A stretch of 59,056 bases of DNA, taken from positions 1-59,056 of the forward strand of contig CAMHEN010000001.1 in NCBI GenBank assembly GCA_946184165.1, given 5' to 3'. The translations under genes were made by a program, and so were the position numbers. Below are positions 36,475 through 51,976 of the stretch, piece by piece; position 1 is the first letter of the stretch; each line of letters opens with the position of its first letter. The stretch comes from an uncultured Clostridia bacterium. GTDB lineage: Bacteria > Bacillota > Clostridia > Oscillospirales > Oscillospiraceae. The notes beneath the pieces are model-generated. The model did no database searches and was not told the origin of the DNA. It worked only from the letters and a program-made list of their open reading frames with translations.

Positions 36475-36797
36475 TGCTTCCGTAACCGGATCGCGATGCG
36501 ATCCTCCGCTCCTTTCCGATAGACGTCCGCTCGACTGCGGCGTCTTTTTCCTGCAGAGATCATGTTCATTTTATCACAGCAGCGGATGGAAGACAAGCGA
36601 CGAAAGACGGCGGCCCTTCGGCGGAGAGACGAAGAACAATCCGGCATGTGCAGCTTGTTATGACTTGCGGCAGGCGAAAAATTTTTGTATAATAAAGGAA
36701 ATCCCAACGTCATAAGTATCCACCGGCATCATGTTCTTCGGAAATAAATATTTGCAGAAAGAAGCATACGGGAACCGTATACAAAAGGAGAATGGAA

Positions 36798-37337
36798 ATG
36801 AGCAAAAAAATCCTGATCATATCCGCAAGTCCGCGGAAAAACAGCAACTCAGAAGCCCTGGCGCGGGCCTTTGCAGAGGGCGCGGAAGCCGCGGGGCATG
36901 AGGTGGACTTTGTCTCCCTGCGCGGCAGGACGGTGAACTTCTGCCGCGGCTGCTTTGCCTGCCAGGAAAAGCTGCGCTGCGTGATTCATGACGACGCGGA
37001 CACGATCTGTCAAAAGGCACTGACTGCAGACGTTCTGGTTTTTGCCACGCCCATCTATTACTATGAAATGTCGGGGCAGCTCAAGACGCTGCTGGATCGG
37101 CTCAACCCGCTCTTTCCCAGCGACTATGCCTTCCGGGATGTCTATCTGATGACCTCTGCTGCGGAGGACGAGGCGAGTGTTCCCGAGCGCGCCGTCAGCG
37201 GCGTGGAGGGCTGGATCGAATGCTTTGAGCGGGCGAGACTTGCCGGTACGGTCTTTATGGGCGGTGTGACCGAAGCGGGGGAGAACCCGGAGCATCCCGC
37301 GTTGGATCTGGCGCGGCAAATGGGGCAGCGCGCATGA
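36798..37337 (+). CDS. Flavodoxin-like NAD(P)H-dependent FMN reductase family protein
   Basis: KILIISASPRKNSNSEAL..., CRGCFAC, VFATPIYYYEMSGQLKTLLDR. The track ORF starts at 36792; ATG 36798 has better SD spacing. Confidence 0.8.
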   Translation: MSKKILIISASPRKNSNSEALARAFAEGAEAAGHEVDFVSLRGRTVNFCRGCFACQEKLRCVIHDDADTICQKALTADVLVFATPIYYYEMSGQLKTLLDRLNPLFPSDYAFRDVYLMTSAAEDEASVPERAVSGVEGWIECFERARLAGTVFMGGVTEAGENPEHPALDLARQMGQRA

Positions 37338-37524: not shown

Positions 37525-37570
37525 GAAAAAAAGCCCGGCGGCTGTTTACACAGCCGCCGGGTCATTTTAT
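37525..37570. terminator. Bidirectional rho-independent terminator
   Basis: AAAAAAAGCCCGGCGGCTG-loop-CAGCCGCCGGGTCATTTT lies between convergent genes. Confidence 0.85.
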
Positions 37571-38976
37571 GCAACGACACGGATCACGTCAAACGCCTCG
37601 TTTCCCTCTAATACCCGGCGGGCTTGGCCGAGATTGTGACAGATGACGCATTTCCGCCCGTCAAGATCAAAGGTCTCGGGCTCGGCGTCAAAGCTCCACA
37701 TCGCCTTGTCCAGGAGCCTGCCGAACTTTCCGGATGCCCCGGGCAGACCGAGAGACGCAAAAACCGCTGTGCGTTTCGGATTTGGTTCGGAGCCTGTGCG
37801 GATCATGATGCGGGAAAGCTCCCTGGGGTTGACCGCAATGTCTACGCAGCCAGTCTTTTCGCACTCAGAGGCGTCGTTGCCGACAGCGCCGAAAGCAAAG
37901 CGTTTGTCGGCCCCGGCCGCCTTGCCAAAGACGGCGATAGGGGAGTCATAGAACAGAAAGCTGTCCTTCTTTTCCGGGAAGTTATTTTCCAGAAAGGCCT
38001 TTGCCGCAAAGCTGTTTGTCAGGATAACAGATTTGCCTGATTTCAGCTTCTCACCCAGCAGCGCCTCCGCCTGGGCTTTCGCCGCATCTTCGGCCTCGTG
38101 CATATCATACACCGTGTCCACGCCGATCTTTTTGAGTGCACCTGCGATCTCAAAGAGGGTCACGCTGCCCGCTTTCAGCTTGAGCACACGCTCAAGCTCC
38201 GGGATGAGATCCATAGAGACCGCCGCAGCGGTGGTCATGCCGTCCTTGTGGGCACAGTACACCAGCTCGTCCTTGTGCTCCCTGGCATAGATCGCGCCGG
38301 TGGGGCAGAACTCCACACAGCGCCCGCAGCCGATGCAGTCGCTCTCGCACATGGCTTTTCCAAAGGCAGGACCGATGGTGACTTCGCAGCCTCTGCCGGA
38401 GGCGGCCAGATTGTGCACCGTCTGAACCTTGCCGCAGATGTCCACACAGCGCCTGCACTTGATGCATTTGTTGGGATTGCGGACAATAGCGGTGGTGGCG
38501 TCCACGGGATAGGTATTGTGCTTCTGGGCAAAGGGCAGCACGTCCACCTTGTACTCCCGGGCCAGGGCCTGGAGATCGCAGAAGCCGTCCTTCACACAGT
38601 CGCAGAAGAAGCACATTTCGCAGAACTTCGGGTCGAGATCCTCACACTTCGAGCTCCCGATGCGAAGGCAGTGGTGGCAGTCCACCGCGTGATTACTCAG
38701 CAGCAGCTCTAAAGTCAGCTTGCGGGAGGCGCGCACGGCCTCGGTATCGGTACGGACCACCATGCCCTCGCGCACCTTGGAGGCGCAGGCGTGCTGGAAG
38801 GTCCGCGCCCCCTCCACCTCCACCACGCACATGCGGCAGGAGGCCCGCGGATCCAGCTCTTTCAGAAAGCAGAGTGTGGGGATATGGATGCCGTTTGCCT
38901 GAGCTGCATCCAGGATCGTGGAACCGGCAGGCACGGAGAGGGCCTTGCCGTCCATGGTGATATTCACGTTTGCCAT
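37567..38976 (-). CDS. [FeFe]-hydrogenase-like (HylA/NuoG-like) iron-sulfur protein lacking H-cluster ligands
   Basis: N-terminal 2Fe-2S domain (CFLKELDPRASCRMCVVEVEG), a His-ligated 4Fe-4S site (HAVDCHHCLRIGSSKC) and two ferredoxin 4Fe-4S motifs (CIKCRRCVDIC, CIGCGRCVEFCP). The following domain is collinear with the hydrogenase large-subunit C-domain, but TSCCPGW is replaced by LTNSFAAK and MPC by VGN, and the protein ends before the CxxGC motif. Confidence 0.8.
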   Translation of the reverse strand: MANVNITMDGKALSVPAGSTILDAAQANGIHIPTLCFLKELDPRASCRMCVVEVEGARTFQHACASKVREGMVVRTDTEAVRASRKLTLELLLSNHAVDCHHCLRIGSSKCEDLDPKFCEMCFFCDCVKDGFCDLQALAREYKVDVLPFAQKHNTYPVDATTAIVRNPNKCIKCRRCVDICGKVQTVHNLAASGRGCEVTIGPAFGKAMCESDCIGCGRCVEFCPTGAIYAREHKDELVYCAHKDGMTTAAAVSMDLIPELERVLKLKAGSVTLFEIAGALKKIGVDTVYDMHEAEDAAKAQAEALLGEKLKSGKSVILTNSFAAKAFLENNFPEKKDSFLFYDSPIAVFGKAAGADKRFAFGAVGNDASECEKTGCVDIAVNPRELSRIMIRTGSEPNPKRTAVFASLGLPGASGKFGRLLDKAMWSFDAEPETFDLDGRKCVICHNLGQARRVLEGNEAFDVIRVVA

Positions 38977-38978
38977 AT

Positions 38979-40211
38979 TCACGTCTCCTTTCCGAGCTTT
39001 GCGTCAAAGTCAGCGGGGAAGAGCTTCAGCGCGCTCATGAACGCGGTGGTCGCGCTCTGTCCCAGTGGACAGAAGCAGGTCTTCTGCATGTAGCCGGAGA
39101 GCGTTTTGATGAGCTCTATATCGGTCCTCGTGCCGTTCCCGCAGGCGATCTTCTCCATGATCTCTGCAATGCGCATGGTACCCTCGCGGCAGGGGGTGCA
39201 CTTGCCGCAGGATTCGTGCTTGAAGAACTTCGCGATCTCCAGCAGGATGTCCACGATATTTCTTGTCTCATCGATCACAAACACCGCCCCGGAGCCAAGC
39301 GATGCGCCGATTGAGCGAATGGAGTCAAAGTCGATGGGCGTGTCCAGCGCATCCGGCGTAACAAAGCCGCAGGAGGAGCCGCCGAGCTGAATAGCCTTGA
39401 GCTTCCTGCCGTCTGCGATACCGCCGCCGAAGCCCTCCACCACATCACGAAGGGTGGCGTTGGTCGGGACCTCGACGCAGACCCTGTTCTTCACGTCGCC
39501 GGAGAGACACATGAGCTTGGTGCCGGGAAACTTTTCAGCACCGATGGAGCCGAACCATTCCGCGCCCCTGTTCACAATCTCAGGGATGACAGCGAAGGTC
39601 TCCACATTGTTGACGACGGTGGGATACCCGTGCAGGCCCTTGACCGCCATGGAGGGCGGCTTCAGTCTGGGCTCACCGCGCAGACCCTCGAGGGAATTCA
39701 CGATCGCCGTGCCCTCGCCGCAGATATAGGCGCCCGCGCCGGAGACCACCTTGATCGTCACATCACCGGTCAGGCCCTTTTCCTCTGCGGTCTTCACCGC
39801 CTTGCGCAGGAGCCTGATGGACTTCTCATACTCGCCGCGCACATAGATGAAGCAGTCCTTCGCGCCCACGGCCCAGGCACCGATGAGGATGCCCTCGATC
39901 ACCGTGTGGGGGTCGCCCTCCATGATGACGCGGTCCTTGAAGGTGCCGGGCTCTCCCTCATCGGCGTTGCAGACGATGTACTTGGTTTCTTCTTTACTTG
40001 CAAAGGCGCTGCTCCACTTTTTGCCTGTGGAGAAGGCGGCGCCGCCTCTGCCGCGCAGACGAGAGGTCTCCTCAATGGTCCGGATCAGTTCGCCCCTGTC
40101 CATGGTGCGGGCCTTTTTCAGCGCCTCATACCCCCCTGCTTTGAGATAAGCGTCGATGGAATCGGGTTTGATGTGTCCGACATTCCGCAGGGCAATCCGT
40201 ACTTCCTCCAT
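38979..40211 (-). CDS. NuoF-like NAD(P)H-binding FMN/4Fe-4S flavoprotein subunit
   Basis: GRGGAAFSTGKKW (FMN), CNADEGEPGTFKDR, and a 4Fe-4S site ESCGKCTPCREG...CPLGQSA. 410 aa with no extra ferredoxin domains. Confidence 0.88.
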   Translation of the reverse strand: MEEVRIALRNVGHIKPDSIDAYLKAGGYEALKKARTMDRGELIRTIEETSRLRGRGGAAFSTGKKWSSAFASKEETKYIVCNADEGEPGTFKDRVIMEGDPHTVIEGILIGAWAVGAKDCFIYVRGEYEKSIRLLRKAVKTAEEKGLTGDVTIKVVSGAGAYICGEGTAIVNSLEGLRGEPRLKPPSMAVKGLHGYPTVVNNVETFAVIPEIVNRGAEWFGSIGAEKFPGTKLMCLSGDVKNRVCVEVPTNATLRDVVEGFGGGIADGRKLKAIQLGGSSCGFVTPDALDTPIDFDSIRSIGASLGSGAVFVIDETRNIVDILLEIAKFFKHESCGKCTPCREGTMRIAEIMEKIACGNGTRTDIELIKTLSGYMQKTCFCPLGQSATTAFMSALKLFPADFDAKLGKET

Positions 40212-40651
40212 CACTTGAGCCCTCCCAGCAGTTCCGCCGCATTTGCGGGGTCATCATTCGTATACAGCTTCCCGTTTACGAGCATATTCGGCGCTGCCTG
40301 ACACTGGCCGAGACACTCCACCCAGTCCAGACTGCATTCCTCGCTGCTCTCACCGATCTTCAAACCGGTTGCCGCTTCCAGCGCCTCGACCAGCGCCGCG
40401 TTGCCCGCACTGTGACAGGCCGTGCCGCGGCAGACACGGATCTCCTTTTTCGCAGGCGGAGAGAAGCGCAGCATGGAATAAAAGCTCGCCGTGTCGTAAA
40501 GCTCGGCCGCGCTCTTTCCCTCGTGGGCGGCAAGCGCACGCAGGCCAGCCTCGCTCACATATCCGTCCCGCTTCTGAATAGCCAGCAGCGCGTCCAGAAG
40601 GCCGCCGTCTTTCAGCGCCTTTTTTATAAGCGTTTCGTAGAAATAGGCCAT
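40211..40651 (-). CDS. NuoE-like thioredoxin-fold 2Fe-2S subunit
   Basis: VCRGTACH...ECLGQCQAAP cluster motif. ATG 40651 lies 2 nt after the upstream stop, behind GAGGAGG. Confidence 0.85.
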   Translation of the reverse strand: MAYFYETLIKKALKDGGLLDALLAIQKRDGYVSEAGLRALAAHEGKSAAELYDTASFYSMLRFSPPAKKEIRVCRGTACHSAGNAALVEALEAATGLKIGESSEECSLDWVECLGQCQAAPNMLVNGKLYTNDDPANAAELLGGLK

Positions 40652-40653
40652 GC

Positions 40654-42957
40654 TCACACCTCCTCAATCTTCTCGACCCGGCAGGGCGTATAGCGCCACT
40701 TGGCATTTCCGGTCAGCTCGTCCAGATCCCGGTGATCCGTGAGATAATTGATGTGCATCCCGTGGGCCCTGCCCTCATAGCTGAGGCCGAAGTGGTGCGG
40801 GATCATACAGTAGCCGGGAGCAGTCTGCCAGGTGATCTCCACCGGAACGGTGATCGATCCCTTCTTTGTGGTCACGCGCACGGTCTCACCGTCGGTCATT
40901 CCGAACGCCGCCGCATCCTCCGGGTTCATCGCCAGACGGTAGGGGTCACGGAAGCGATAGGTGCCGGGATTGCGCATGGAGGTATTCATGCCGCTGTCAG
41001 AGTGACGACCTGCCGAGAGGATCATGTTGCAGCCGTCCTTGAGACGAAGCGCCTCGGCCTCGTGTGCCGGTGTGATGACCCGGAGTGCTTTGTCGATCTC
41101 CTCGCACCAGAGATGGAACTTCTTGTCCTTATGCCTGATGTGCCGCTCCATCAGGTGCTCGACGTCACTGTAGGCGATCACCGCGCCCTCCGGGTGCCGA
41201 TCCACTTTCTCAAAGGCGGCATCCATGGTGCAGAACTCGTTGAGCATCGGCATCCGCGCGAGAAACGGGTGCCGCTTTGCATCCGGTTTTACCGCCATAA
41301 CGGCGCGCTCCGGCAGCTTGGAAATCAGCAGTGCCGCCCAGCACATGGCGTGTCCCGCAGAACCCATGGCCTTGCCCAGCGTGAGGGCGATGATGATCGC
41401 CGCCTGGTCGAAATACTTCATGCCGCCCAAGGCGATCCAGCCCACGACCTTCATGAAATACTTGATGCGGTCACCGGTGCGCACAGCCTCTTCAGCCGCG
41501 TCATACAGATATTGCGGGAGTTTTGGGATAAGGCCCATCGCCTCGGCAAGCTCCGCGTAAACCATGGCGTCCTCGCGAGCCTCGCCGGGGGCCTTGACAA
41601 CCGCCCGGCGGCTGAAATACATGATCTCGGGATAGTGGAAGGCGAACACGTCAAAGTCGCCGCCCACCTCATAGGCGCTGGGAGTCGGCAGCACATAGTC
41701 CGCGATACGGGTGGTTTCGGTCTCCACACAGTCCATCGCGACAAAGAGCTCCAGATGGCGCAGAGCCTCCTCCATCTTTTGGGAGTCTGGATAGCTGCGC
41801 AGGGGATTGGACATATTGCAGAAGGCCATGCGGATACGGTCTTCATTATCGCCCAGCACCTCGTCCGGCAGCGCCCCCTCGGGGTACATGCCCGCAACGG
41901 GAAAGCGATTGGTCACCGGCATGCGCCAGACATTCGGATCATACTCGTCGGAATAGTCGAGCGTGATGATGCGGACGGGCGGAATATTACCGCCGGGAAC
42001 CAGAAGCGTGCCGCACACGGCCATCAGGATAAGACACAGGTAGCTCGAAAGCGTGGACTGCCGCCCGAAGTACAGGCCCAGATCCTGGTGCATGCCCCAC
42101 TTCTTCGTGGTGAGGATGCGGGCGAAATCCTCAGCCTGCTGCCGCGGGATACCGCAGACCTTGAGAGCGCCGTCGATATCAAAATCCAGAAACCAGGCGC
42201 GCGCATGGGCCCAGTCCTTGCAGCAGCGATACAGGAAGTCACGGTTCTGCCAGCCCTTTTCAAGGATCAGGGAGATGAGCGCCCGGAGGAACAGCGCGTC
42301 CGAGCCGGGCCGGGGCTTTATGTGCATGTCCGCCATGCGGGCGGTTTCCGAGAGGCGCGGATCGACCGCAATGACCATTTTGTCCGGATCGCGGGAGAAT
42401 TCCCGGATCATGGGTCTCGCATTCGGAAGCTGATGGGAGACATAGGAGTTGGAGCCCCAGAAAATGAGCACCTCGCAGTTTTTGTCGTCCGGCTCCAGCG
42501 GGTGGAACTGATCGCCGAATATGCGCCCGCAGCTCCAGAAGATACCCATGAACTCCACGCCGATGGGGTTAAAAAAATACTGGGAGCCGATGGCTTTCAA
42601 AAAGGGCTGTGCCGTAGCGGCGGCAGCGCCGGTCGCGCCGCCGCCGCCCCCGATGATTGCGGCCGAACGCGGTCCGTGTGCCTTCAGGATAGCGTTGGCC
42701 TTCTCCGCAATCTCTGCGTAGGCCTGATCCCAGGAGATGCGCTCGTAATGATCGCCCACTCGCTTTTTGGGGTACAGGATGCGCTCGTGGTTTTCCACAA
42801 AATATTTGGCGCTTCTGCCTTTGCGGCAGCAGTAGCACGCACTGCTGGGGCTGTCGGGATCGGGCCGGACATTGATGATCCGGTTGTCCTCAATCTCCAT
42901 CTCCAGCCCGCAGGTCATGGCACAGAGGTTACACAGGGTCTTTTTCCATTCACTCAT
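40654..42957 (-). CDS. Cytoplasmic molybdopterin (bis-MGD, MopB superfamily) oxidoreductase, substrate unknown
   Basis: N-terminal 4Fe-4S motif CNLCAMTCG...CYCCRKG. MopB body (VLIFWGSNSY, IAVDPRLSETA). C-terminal Molydop-binding beta-barrel (AAAFGMTDGETVRVTTKKGSITVPVEIT). No signal or Tat motif and no in-frame TGA. ATG 42957 lies behind GGAGGA. Confidence 0.85.
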   Translation of the reverse strand: MSEWKKTLCNLCAMTCGLEMEIEDNRIINVRPDPDSPSSACYCCRKGRSAKYFVENHERILYPKKRVGDHYERISWDQAYAEIAEKANAILKAHGPRSAAIIGGGGGATGAAAATAQPFLKAIGSQYFFNPIGVEFMGIFWSCGRIFGDQFHPLEPDDKNCEVLIFWGSNSYVSHQLPNARPMIREFSRDPDKMVIAVDPRLSETARMADMHIKPRPGSDALFLRALISLILEKGWQNRDFLYRCCKDWAHARAWFLDFDIDGALKVCGIPRQQAEDFARILTTKKWGMHQDLGLYFGRQSTLSSYLCLILMAVCGTLLVPGGNIPPVRIITLDYSDEYDPNVWRMPVTNRFPVAGMYPEGALPDEVLGDNEDRIRMAFCNMSNPLRSYPDSQKMEEALRHLELFVAMDCVETETTRIADYVLPTPSAYEVGGDFDVFAFHYPEIMYFSRRAVVKAPGEAREDAMVYAELAEAMGLIPKLPQYLYDAAEEAVRTGDRIKYFMKVVGWIALGGMKYFDQAAIIIALTLGKAMGSAGHAMCWAALLISKLPERAVMAVKPDAKRHPFLARMPMLNEFCTMDAAFEKVDRHPEGAVIAYSDVEHLMERHIRHKDKKFHLWCEEIDKALRVITPAHEAEALRLKDGCNMILSAGRHSDSGMNTSMRNPGTYRFRDPYRLAMNPEDAAAFGMTDGETVRVTTKKGSITVPVEITWQTAPGYCMIPHHFGLSYEGRAHGMHINYLTDHRDLDELTGNAKWRYTPCRVEKIEEV

Positions 42958-43040
42958 GCTCAATCCTCCACATCTTTCAGGGGCGTCTGTCTTAGCTGAC
43001 GATCCGGGGGCATCCCCTTTGTGAACACTTCACAACTTGT

Positions 43041-43069
43041 ATGATACGTATTCACCGCGGACCTGTCAA
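43041..43069 (-). promoter_or_regulatory. Sigma-A-type promoter of the molybdoenzyme operon (TTGACA-17-TATCAT on minus strand)
   Basis: Plus-strand tgtcaa at 43064-43069 and atgata at 43041-43046. A small palindrome GTGAA-N3-TTCAC at 43021-43033 lies just downstream. Confidence 0.55.
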
Positions 43070-43170: not shown

Positions 43171-44379
43171 CTAAAGAAGACAGGGCGGCAGACGCAGTAC
43201 CCGGATCTGATCGCCTCTCTCAAGCGGCGCAGTGTTCCCCGGAACGATGCCGATCAGCTCACAGCCGGCAAAAGAGGCGATGTTCCCGTTTCCGCGGCCT
43301 TGATGCTCCTGAAACCAGGCCTGTCCGTCCTCGATCAGCAAGTGCCCGCGCAGCATGCGGACGGCGCTGCTCGTCTTCGGCATGCCTTCCCATATGGGAA
43401 GCTGCCAAAAAACATTCTCCTCCTGTGCCCCTGCCATTGCGAACAGCGCAGGGCGCAGCACGGTTAATAGACTCATCAGCGCGGCTGCCGGATTCCCGGA
43501 GAGACTGATCAGGAGCTTGCCTTTCCAGCGAGAGGCCAGAAGCGCGCCGCCCGGCTTCATATTGACCTTCCAGAAGAGCCGCTCGCTGCCGAGAGCCGAC
43601 GCGGTACTTGACGCAAAATCATAGTCTCCCACGGAGGCGCCCCCTGTCGTGAGCACAAGATCGGCAGGTCCTTCCAGTGATCTGCGCACAGCGCACAGCA
43701 TCGCCTCTCTCTCATCCGGAACGATCGGCTGACGCTCTGAGATTAAGCCCATTTTTTCCAAATAGGCCGAGAGCACGTAGCTGCTGCTGTTATAGATCCC
43801 GTGAGGGCTGCAGGACTCTCCGGGCTCGTGCAGCTCGTTTCCCGTCGCGATCAGAGAGACGACGGGCTTTCGAAACACTTCGACCTTTGCGATCCCCTGG
43901 GAGGCAAGCAGCCCCAGATGTCCCGGCGTCAACCGGGTTCCGGCCCTTAAAAGAAGCTGGTCGACGCGGAGATCTTCACCCTGCCGTATGATGTTGGTCC
44001 CATGTCTGACCTTCTGCTCAATACGGATTATCATTCCTTCAGCTTGAACATCCTCCTGCTTGATGACCGCATCTGCGCCCGGTGGAATGGGGGCACCGGT
44101 AAAGATACGCAGCGCTTCGCCTTCGGCGAGCGCTGGCAGCGTACGGCAGCCTGCCGCCGCTGTTCCGATGACCTGCAGCGTCCCGGGCACGTCTTCGGAG
44201 CGACAGGCATAGCCGTCGAAGGGACTTTTGTCGAAGGGGGGGATCGCCGTATGTGCAAAGCAGTCTGCAGCAAGGATCCGCCCGAGAGAATGTGCGACGG
44301 AAACGCTCTCCGCCGTCGGCCTCATGACCTGACGCAGCAAAAGCTCGGCGGCGGCTTCCCATTCCATATACGCCTGCAT
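43171..44379 (-). CDS. moeA: Molybdopterin molybdenumtransferase
   Basis: Typical MoeA domains (SPFDGYA, IFTGAPIPPGADAV, TTGGASVGDYD, KPGGAL). The ATG overlaps the upstream stop (TGATG). Confidence 0.9.
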   Translation of the reverse strand: MQAYMEWEAAAELLLRQVMRPTAESVSVAHSLGRILAADCFAHTAIPPFDKSPFDGYACRSEDVPGTLQVIGTAAAGCRTLPALAEGEALRIFTGAPIPPGADAVIKQEDVQAEGMIIRIEQKVRHGTNIIRQGEDLRVDQLLLRAGTRLTPGHLGLLASQGIAKVEVFRKPVVSLIATGNELHEPGESCSPHGIYNSSSYVLSAYLEKMGLISERQPIVPDEREAMLCAVRRSLEGPADLVLTTGGASVGDYDFASSTASALGSERLFWKVNMKPGGALLASRWKGKLLISLSGNPAAALMSLLTVLRPALFAMAGAQEENVFWQLPIWEGMPKTSSAVRMLRGHLLIEDGQAWFQEHQGRGNGNIASFAGCELIGIVPGNTAPLERGDQIRVLRLPPCLL

Positions 44380-44921
44380 CAACGCTCACGCTCCCTGCAG
44401 AGCTTATCCCACTGCGAAACAATGGGAAGGAGCTCTGTATAGATTTCTTCAAAATATTCCGGCTGCATTCGGATCACGCGCGCCGACGGGTGCGCTTTCA
44501 CACGGCGCAGGAAGTCTGTCTCCATCCCTTCCCGCACAGCGGCAAGGACCGGAAGATTCCCGTCAAGCTTCTCCAAAACAGTGCGGCAGAAGACTTCCGC
44601 GTCGCTTTCCATGAATCCGATCTCATCCATTACAATGATCCCGTCCGTGCGTGCGTTGAGAAAAGCGACGCCGAGCGTGTCAAAAACCTCCGTGTATATA
44701 ATCCGATCCCGGGTGTTGCAGTCCGCCGCATGATTCTGCGCCGACGGCTCTAACGGCTCTGTCCCGTAGGGAAATAAATAAATCTCGTGATAGCCGTCAG
44801 GGCGTGTGGTCGTGGTTCTTGTTTCATATCCGAAGGCAGGCGTCCTGGTATTCGCAAGCAGGCGGCGAATCATGGCGCTTCTGCCGCTCCTTCGCCGACC
44901 GCAGAGTAAAATATGCTCCAT
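44379..44921 (-). CDS. NTPase_1/THEP1-like P-loop protein with variant Walker A
   Basis: Walker B and downstream region IIVMDEIGFMESDAEVFCRTVLEKLDGNLPVLAAV, as in the THEP1 family. Walker A reads GRRRSGRS (Arg in place of the canonical Lys). ATG 44921 lies behind GGGGGA; the track ORF extends to 44942. Confidence 0.6.
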   Translation of the reverse strand: MEHILLCGRRRSGRSAMIRRLLANTRTPAFGYETRTTTTRPDGYHEIYLFPYGTEPLEPSAQNHAADCNTRDRIIYTEVFDTLGVAFLNARTDGIIVMDEIGFMESDAEVFCRTVLEKLDGNLPVLAAVREGMETDFLRRVKAHPSARVIRMQPEYFEEIYTELLPIVSQWDKLCRERER

Positions 44922-44974
44922 CCCGTTTCCCCCTATCATCAATACTCTGATGCATGTCCTCTGGATAATAAAGT

Positions 44975-51409: not shown

Positions 51410-51976
51410 TTATCTCCACAGCCTCTTTGCTTTTTCAAAGTCCTCCGGTGTATTGCAATTGAGCAGAAGATCCACGTCGCCAGTGTATTCGACTCTTTTT
51501 ACGCCGGGATTGCTTGACAATCTTCGCATGGACCGGGAGTCTGACAGAATAAGCACTTCTGCGCGTTCATGCAGGCTCGAGTCGTACACGGCCAGCAGAG
51601 GTTCGATCAAACCGTCGTGAGCGAGTACGGTAGCAACACCTTCATGCGCCTCCGTGAGCTGCTCAAGCACCTCAGCCGGAACCAGCGGGGTATCCACGCT
51701 CACCACAAGGCAGGCGGTTTTTTGCGCCGCCATCAGACAGGCGTGTACACCGCTGAGCGGCCCTTTGCCCGGGTAGACATCCGCAACGGCGCGCGTTCCG
51801 TCTATTGTTTTGTCATAACCCGAAACCATGATGTCCTCAATCCCGAGCTCCCGGAGCTTCTGCACCTGGATCTCCAGAAGCGTCCGGTCACCGAGCTTCA
51901 GCTCGGCCTTTTTGATACCCATTCTTTTGCTTCCGCCGCCCGCCAGCACGACACCTGAAATGTCATTTGCATTCAT
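51410..51976 (-). CDS. mobA: Molybdenum cofactor guanylyltransferase
   Basis: GVVLAGGGSKRMG..K, and DGTRAVADVYPGKGPLSGVHA matching the D.....GPL.G motif. 188 aa. Confidence 0.85.
   Translation of the reverse strand: MNANDISGVVLAGGGSKRMGIKKAELKLGDRTLLEIQVQKLRELGIEDIMVSGYDKTIDGTRAVADVYPGKGPLSGVHACLMAAQKTACLVVSVDTPLVPAEVLEQLTEAHEGVATVLAHDGLIEPLLAVYDSSLHERAEVLILSDSRSMRRLSSNPGVKRVEYTGDVDLLLNCNTPEDFEKAKRLWR

Follow-up and report, generated by a model that had tools for sequence, protein, structure and literature searches.

The 59,056-nucleotide stretch analyzed here (the window; contig CAMHEN010000001.1 of an uncultured Clostridia bacterium) carries on its minus strand a gene for a catalytic subunit of the MopB, or dimethyl sulfoxide (DMSO) reductase, superfamily. 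We propose, with a probability of roughly 0.55, that the product of this gene is a soluble cytoplasmic NAD(H)-linked oxidoreductase with a molybdenum (Mo)- or tungsten (W)-bis-MGD center (MGD, molybdopterin guanine dinucleotide), that it belongs to an uncharacterized MopB clade, and that it uses Glu135 as the metal ligand. The gene is the first of a four-gene operon and is followed by genes for NuoE-like, NuoF-like, and HydA-like subunits. The domains of the protein, this operon, the residue conservation, the alignment position of Glu135, and the clade are directly observed; Glu135 is the best candidate for the ligand, for which Asp-ligated enzymes of the NarG type would provide a precedent.

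At this locus the longest open reading frame (ORF) spans 40654..42963 on the minus strand and opens with TTG. A GGAGGA Shine-Dalgarno sequence is located at 42964-42969, outside a promoter-like site described below and ahead of an ATG at 42957; this ATG was therefore taken as the start of MopB, giving a protein of 767 amino acids. Residue numbers count from the ATG, and those of an initial annotation of this DNA, which left the strand unstated and counted from the TTG, equal the present numbers plus 2. The gene and its sites are as follows:

40654..42957, minus strand: MopB (bis-MGD) catalytic subunit, 767 amino acids, from the ORF and Pfam; stop codon 40654-40656
42826..42933, minus strand: FS0 [4Fe-4S] site (C9, C12, C16, C44), from motif and conservation
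42820-42822, minus strand: codon of Lys46, after FS0 and outside the FS0 range, aligned to FdhF K44
42607..42654, minus strand: Gly/Ala-rich segment, residues 102-117, model confidence below 50 at residues 106-108
42508..42570, minus strand: ligand loop N130-Q150 (NPIGVEFMGIFWSCGRIFGDQ), from profile alignments and conservation
42553-42555, minus strand: Glu135, canonical ligand position, from alignment
42529-42531, minus strand: Cys143 (WSCG), numbered Cys145 in the initial annotation

Membership in the superfamily is indicated by three Pfam domains (Molybdop_Fe4S4, Molybdopterin, and Molydop_binding; E-values 4e-13, 4e-29, and 6e-19), a four-domain fold, the FS0 cysteine motif, and a lysine between FS0 and the pterin. 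The FS0 motif, as described initially, was recovered as C9-x2-C12-x3-C16 with C41, C43, and C44, of which only C9, C12, C16, and C44 are invariant across the wider clade. Among the close homologues covering each position, C9, C12, and C16 are kept in all 112, and C44 and K46 in all 113. Results also agreed with the initial annotation in that the peptide quoted there matches the MopB translation exactly, that the ORF contains no in-frame stop (TGA) and no Cys-His dipeptide, and that the N terminus (MSEWKKTLC) has no twin-arginine (Tat) leader, from which a cytoplasmic location follows. An AlphaFold2 (AF2) model of MopB (predicted local distance difference test [pLDDT], 82; predicted template modeling [pTM] score, 0.84) matches every MopB type about equally, with Foldseek template modeling (TM) scores of 0.61-0.74 at 14-19% identity. 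An unusual Gly/Ala run that had been pointed out is indeed present, residues 102-117 being 75% Gly+Ala, and is a lineage-specific loop rather than a family feature: the family median over these positions is 37.5%, and the run is confined to relatives of roughly 80% identity or more. As a functional motif it was rejected after comparison of 116 close homologues.

To locate the ligand position, we used profile-to-PDB alignments together with alignment of E. coli fdhF, napA, narG, and dmsA to the family hidden Markov model by hmmalign. In the former, the Cys/Sec-His pair of three solved formate dehydrogenases (FDHs; 7qv7, 9t1s, and 9vap) falls on E135-F136, and Cys141 of acetylene hydratase lies one residue off Glu135. 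In the latter, U140-H141 of FdhF (TGA at codon 140) and the Cys of the NapA motif RHCMAS likewise fall on E135-F136, and K44 of FdhF falls on K46. FdhF U140, the NapA Cys, the NarG Asp, and the DmsA Ser are taken here, as established crystallographic knowledge, to be metal ligands. FdhF, NapA, and the DmsA Ser (GDYS) all show an ungapped spacing of ligand, 12 residues, and Gly148; the NarG Asp is off by one, further along. Of 114 close homologues, all 114 keep both E135 and F136, which belong to an invariant loop block with N130, G133, W141, G144, G148, and Q150.

This invariant glutamate had been missed by the initial annotation, which instead put forward Cys143 as the Mo/W ligand. The cysteine sits 8 residues past the position that matches the ligand of FdhF, NapA, and the three solved FDHs, and it is variable among homologues. 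The WSCG Cys is not kept in a 16-member family alignment (48-87% identity), and across 116 close homologues position 143 is occupied by His in 82 sequences, by Cys in 22, by Asn in 7, by Leu in 2, and by Ser in 1.

The glutamate also marks a clade. A profile search over 1.84 billion representatives returned 1,839 proteins at E ≤1e-30, and the best 150 representatives (50% identity clusters) were inspected at the ligand position. Glu is found in all of the top scorers (in motifs such as IGVEF and ALAQEKTG/Q) and Asp in those ranking next (SQDCNNKF and TIDQSAKW), with Cys types only further down. In a phylogeny of 117 full-length sequences, built with FastTree alone, with long reference branches and an arbitrary root on DmsA, the Glu/Asp clade has a support of 98 and leaves E. 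coli FdhF, NapA, and the Cys types outside. Within it, a Glu clade that includes the window protein (Glu in 43 of 44 rows; support 98) is sister to an Asp-dominated clade (54 of 58 rows). No twin-arginine leader was found among the Glu/Asp-clade N termini inspected. Members of the sister clade (e.g., P0169-P0273) are leaderless MopB proteins of ~690-790 amino acids with Asp at the ligand position and fall outside the NarG type; no NCBIfam model names this clade or the Glu clade, and the Asp-clade member tested was without a close solved relative.

The closest chemical precedent for a Glu-ligated center is provided by the Type II Asp-ligated enzymes (NarG, EbdA, and PcrA), which have a carboxylate at the ligand position. 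Those enzymes are larger and respiratory, and several are Tat dependent. The window protein, in contrast, has no leader, is 767 amino acids long, has Glu in place of Asp, clusters with FDH/Nap-like sequences, and scores 91 bits against a cut-off of 985 for the Type II model TIGR03479. The accepted type I/II/III classification of these enzymes rests on which residue is the ligand (Sec, Cys, Ser, or Asp), and the ligand also modulates the metal's redox potential and reactivity; the residue aligned here, Glu135, is none of these four. Two reviews (PMC6650914; PMC7759655) name no ligands in this family other than Ser, Cys, Sec, and Asp, with none in Aio, and literature searches returned nothing relevant on a Glu-ligated MopB protein or on an operon of this type.

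The remaining genes of the operon, its boundaries, and the cofactor genes of the window are as follows:

43041..43069, minus strand: TTGACA-17-TATCAT, a promoter-like site preceding the MopB gene, a consensus match only
40211..40657, minus strand: NuoE-like [2Fe-2S] thioredoxin-like ferredoxin, its start overlapping the MopB stop
38979..40214, minus strand: NuoF-like FMN/NADH subunit, minimal, 411 amino acids, from domain search
37567..38982, minus strand: HydA/HylA-like Fe-S subunit, 471 amino acids, from domain search
37534..37561, minus strand: intrinsic-terminator-like hairpin, 12 pairs and a T run, closing the four-gene operon
43171..44382, minus strand: MoeA molybdopterin molybdotransferase, which together with the NTPase_1 gene forms a transcription unit of its own upstream
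44379..44942, minus strand: NTPase_1 (THEP1-like) P-loop protein, translationally coupled to moeA
51410..51976, minus strand: MobA-like NTP transferase (MGD synthesis)

The NuoF-like subunit contains only the Complex1_51K (FMN), SLBB, and NADH_4Fe-4S (N3 cluster) domains and lacks the additional B2-B5 Fe-S domains. The HydA-like subunit retains 2Fe-2S, His-ligated 4Fe-4S, and 2x[4Fe-4S] sites followed by a remnant of the H-domain; among 20 aligned HydA-like homologues, no invariant Cys was found past residue 226, and the H-cluster Cys motifs are absent. Its best NCBIfam model is NF040763 ([FeFe] hydrogenase group A6), at 258 bits against a cut-off of 765. The non-bifurcating NADH-dependent [FeFe] hydrogenase of this group (S. 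wolfei type) is thus its nearest model and has a similarly minimal NuoF-like partner; it differs in that the window subunit falls far below the family cut-off, its H-domain remnant has no conserved Cys, and catalysis would have shifted to the MopB subunit. Residues 121-135 (38576-38622, minus strand), which follow the His-ligated cluster motif and precede the 2x[4Fe-4S] domain, form an invariant extra Cys-rich stretch, C121-x2-C124-x2-C127-x-C129-x5-C135, which may bind an additional cluster.

Bifurcating Bfu enzymes require a BfuB subunit with additional B2-B5 Fe-S cluster domains, and a minimal NuoF-like partner is the form seen in non-bifurcating enzymes (PMC9304861). Since the NuoF-like subunit of the window has no extra cluster domains, a simple NAD(H)-linked, non-bifurcating enzyme is expected by this criterion. 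In the path that we propose, NADH would reduce the FMN of the minimal NuoF-like subunit, and electrons would then travel via the Fe-S clusters of the NuoE-like and the H-cluster-less HydA-like subunits to FS0 of MopB (C9, C12, C16, and C44), and from there past Lys46 and the pterin to Mo/W and the substrate, or in the reverse direction. The DPR...D-H and GSN motifs (MGD binding) are conserved in the family alignment; because the FS0 cysteines, Lys46, and these motifs are kept and cofactor genes are linked to the MopB gene, the cofactor is predicted to be bound. Co-folding of MopB with HydA-like residues 160-392 gave an ipSAE of 0.34 (runs of 0.27, 0.34, and 0.40) versus 0.00 for the best control, with contact agreement of at least 81% and partner pLDDT of at least 77. 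In calibration, 58 of the 80 solved complexes reached the mark, as did 2 of 110 mismatched pairs; only 7 of the 80 reached it with a score of 0.60 or less, and so did both mismatches. The predicted complex lends weak support to a contact between MopB and the HydA-like subunit.

Neighboring genes in relatives were counted by tblastn over 59 related loci. Genes near the MopB gene were as follows:

HydA-like gene: 51 of 59 loci
NuoE and NuoF: 31 of 59 loci each
EFR1-like flavodoxin/ferredoxin: 15 of 59 loci
MoeA, MobA, or MobB: 27 of 59 loci
TetR or GntR-FCD regulator: 39 of 59 loci
208-amino-acid membrane protein: 18 of 59 loci

Besides the HydA-like partner, MGD-cofactor genes and TetR/GntR regulators are frequent. 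A MobA homologue alone is found in 22 of the 59 loci, and a full molybdenum cofactor operon adjoins the copy in C. beijerinckii. No conserved catabolic partner was found in the relatives' loci, the recurring genes being confined to redox, cofactor, and regulatory functions. At three loci (L005:7881-8492, L048, and L054), in C. beijerinckii, C. estertheticum, and a related Clostridiaceae metagenome-assembled genome (MAG), the NuoF-like gene is reduced (~185-205 amino acids). Only the NADH_4Fe-4S domain was detected in the C. beijerinckii copy, the FMN domain being absent, so NADH cannot be the donor there.

Several points weigh against the enzyme proposed here. The active-site loops are the least confident parts of the AF2 model, with pLDDT below 50 at residues 132-138 (the ligand loop), 148-151, 171-175, and 653-664, and for acetylene hydratase, DmsA, and NarG the alignment is uncertain by at least one residue. 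The side chain of Glu is longer than that of any known ligand and could serve as a second-sphere acid/base beside a ligand-free metal. NuoF is missing in 21 of the 51 HydA-like loci, and 9 of these 21 have an EFR1-like flavodoxin/ferredoxin gene, so that a link to NADH does not extend to every family member. Finally, the direction of the reaction and the class of substrate are read from gene context and by analogy.

The alternative that fares best, which we nevertheless regard as unlikely, is that the metal may have no protein ligand, as in arsenite oxidase, or be ligated elsewhere, with Glu135 acting as a catalytic acid/base or as a substrate-binding residue of the pocket. In addition to the low model confidence in the ligand loop, a parallel is offered by the carboxylate Asp13 of acetylene hydratase, which we take to be a catalytic residue and not a ligand (PDB 2e7z), and arsenite oxidase is active though its ligand has been lost (PMC7759655). 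On the other hand, position 135 toggles only between Glu and Asp within the clade, as ligand positions do; the equivalent Asp is a proven ligand in NarG-type enzymes (PMC6650914); and the spacing from Glu135 to Gly148 equals that of true ligands. These features argue for Glu135 as the ligand.

Metal-dependent FDHs (E. coli FdhH, T. kivui hydrogen-dependent CO2 reductase FdhF [7qv7], and F420-FDH [9t1s]) are the best matches to MopB in both sequence and fold, and the two share the FS0 motif and the four-domain fold, have the same Lys following the fourth Cys, and are similar in size. The best solved relatives, FDHs and acetylene hydratase, reach at most 126 bits with the single sequence and at most 191 bits with the profile, and the PDB comparison found no close relative with a solved structure. 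Acetylene hydratase (2e7z) has a comparable profile score (183 bits) and is likewise cytoplasmic and of single-subunit size; it has Cys141 as ligand and Asp13 next to FS0, whereas the window protein has Ala13, Glu135, and dedicated redox partners. Among NCBIfam models the best for MopB is Fdh-alpha (TIGR01591), at 214 bits against a cut-off of 666.25, and neither the window protein, nor 10 wider Glu-clade members, nor another 10 from the Asp and Glu clades reached the cut-off of any model. Unlike the FDHs, MopB has Glu-Phe in place of Sec/Cys-His, and the RGQNNVQG motif, which holds the catalytic Arg of FdhH (R333), is absent in an alignment to E. coli FdhF; Arg329 (PPVR), which lies close by, is retained as Arg in only 59 of ~112 homologues. 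An ESM Atlas search returned solely generic "molybdopterin oxidoreductase" names, and the cluster members are named as generically. Overall, we conclude that the window protein is not a formate dehydrogenase, consistent with the initial description of a MopB catalytic subunit without the FDH signature.

A MopB subunit is likewise wired to NuoE/NuoF-type subunits in HylABC-FdhF2 of Gottschalkia acidurici and FdsABG of Rhodobacter capsulatus; unlike these, the window system has a NuoF-like subunit of the minimal, non-bifurcating form and a catalytic subunit that is not an FDH. BfuA, the separate HydA-like protein of the G. acidurici enzyme, presumably has no H-cluster. It carries only Fe-S clusters, and the pterin site is in an additional subunit (PMC9304861). 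An atypical NAD+-dependent FDH or CO2 reductase with such an architecture, diverged only in its first-sphere residues, could accordingly be imagined, given the resemblance of the split NuoE, NuoF, and H-cluster-less HydA-like layout to G. acidurici Fdh-Bfu (PMC9304861) and the rank of FDHs among model and PDB matches. This is improbable in view of the shortfall in bit score, the invariant Glu-Phe, the missing motif, and the variable Arg329; moreover, the clade lies apart from FdhF on the tree, and wider Glu-clade members stand alone next to HxlR, TetR, or glutathione S-transferase (GST) genes.

Slightly less probable again is a cofactor-less MopB shell serving as an Fe-S or structural module, in the manner of the C-terminal domain of NuoG, of QrcB, or of the dead FDH-like NfnABC tail. 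The canonical ligand has been lost and the HydA-like partner is itself a degenerate enzyme, as such a shell might suggest, but the protein keeps its FS0 cysteines, Lys46, and MGD-binding motifs, cofactor genes are linked in close to half of the loci (27 of 59), the most conserved parts of the protein are the active-site loops (E135, F136, W141, Q150, H290, D292, R299, and R662), and the QrcB model gives 93.5 bits against a cut-off of 440. Ligation by Cys143, or in a variant by Ser142 as in DMSO reductase, is highly improbable: a Cys does occur ~130 residues past FS0, and hmmalign set the DmsA "YSS" beside W141-S142, but His prevails at position 143, Ser142 is Ala in 10 of 116 close homologues and is not kept across the wider Glu clade, and the ungapped Gly148 spacing sets the DmsA Ser on 135. 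Both residues were rejected as ligands, Cys143 on its conservation and Ser142 on conservation and spacing.

For the enzyme with Glu135 as ligand, the reaction that we favor, by analogy, is an NADH-driven reduction of a small oxidized compound, such as an N- or S-oxide or an oxyanion. This preference follows from the adjoining regulators, the flavin-reductase and nitroreductase neighbors, the Asp-ligated precedent, and three arginines (Arg299, Arg387, and Arg662) that are invariant among close homologues and that, from their sequence positions and low-confidence model loops, would be placed in the active site. The loci of Clostridium and Acetobacterium (L047, L048) have additional genes for a TM1586 nitroreductase, an Old Yellow Enzyme (OYE), PNPOx, and MarR, and the flavin-reductase/nitroreductase/OYE neighborhood looks like one of the detoxification type. 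In the window, a gene for an FMN_red flavin reductase (36792-37337, plus strand) is convergent with the end of the operon.

Further observations concern the loci of relatives. Tandem MopB paralogues precede a single HydA-like gene in eight loci (L017, L021, L022, L039, L056, L062, L063, and L068), often with a TetR gene between them, which suggests substrate diversification around one common electron-transfer module. The 208-amino-acid multi-pass membrane protein, which has no Pfam match, is encoded between the HydA-like gene and mobA (e.g., L070:8864-9490 and L043:15181-15645), and a 150-amino-acid protein with an N-terminal membrane anchor is found beside it in 4 of its 18 loci. The two proteins, both absent from the window, may import metal or substrate. 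In the window itself, a perfect palindrome, TGTGAACACTTCACA, is located at 43020-43034, just downstream of the -10 hexamer of the promoter-like site. It was rejected as a conserved operator, as it was not found in the relatives' loci and at least one match occurred in 11 of 100 shuffles; the palindrome may have arisen by chance.

The host genome is a rumen/gut Clostridia MAG, 67% complete, in which the window MopB is the only PF00384 match; it also encodes MoaC, one xanthine-dehydrogenase-type gene, and two aldehyde ferredoxin oxidoreductase (AOR) genes. The MopB gene is present in 4 of the 25 genus genomes searched, the host included, and one copy is truncated. This copy, in the same-genus relative G020 (L004:1507-2988), is a 5'-truncated remnant covering residues 272-764 at 60% identity and stands before an intact HydA-like gene. 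An in-frame TGA in the G020 copy was rejected as a Sec codon, being the stop codon that precedes the truncated copy. Among sequencing runs, no RNA run was listed as containing the sequence, and the DNA runs listed had shares of 0.19 or less, which bears on neither expression nor habitat. A scan of one genome per species yielded 65 loci, the C. beijerinckii copy having been located separately, and the hosts included rumen/gut Oscillospiraceae and Ruminococcaceae, Acetobacterium, Sporomusa acidovorans, Clostridium estertheticum, Collinsella, Mogibacterium, a Lachnospiraceae isolate, and Smithella.

The wider implication is tentative, and we place it somewhat short of even odds: Glu may be a true fifth type of protein-derived Mo/W ligand in the bis-MGD superfamily and define a large cytoplasmic clade, with an Asp-dominated sister, that has no characterized member and whose chemistry would be new to the superfamily, and gut and rumen Firmicutes and acetogens may have recruited a gutted [FeFe]-hydrogenase subunit together with NuoEF as its NADH wire. 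If this is true, the invariant-Glu clade and its non-NarG Asp sister would add a class that has no solved close relative, curated NCBIfam family, or known substrate, with members in rumen and gut Oscillospiraceae, Collinsella, Mogibacterium, Acetobacterium, Sporomusa, and solventogenic clostridia. Because some of these hosts, e.g., C. beijerinckii and Sporomusa acidovorans, are cultured and genetically tractable, the question is directly testable. In gut fermentations, the activity could provide a so far unrecognized sink for NADH or serve in detoxification.

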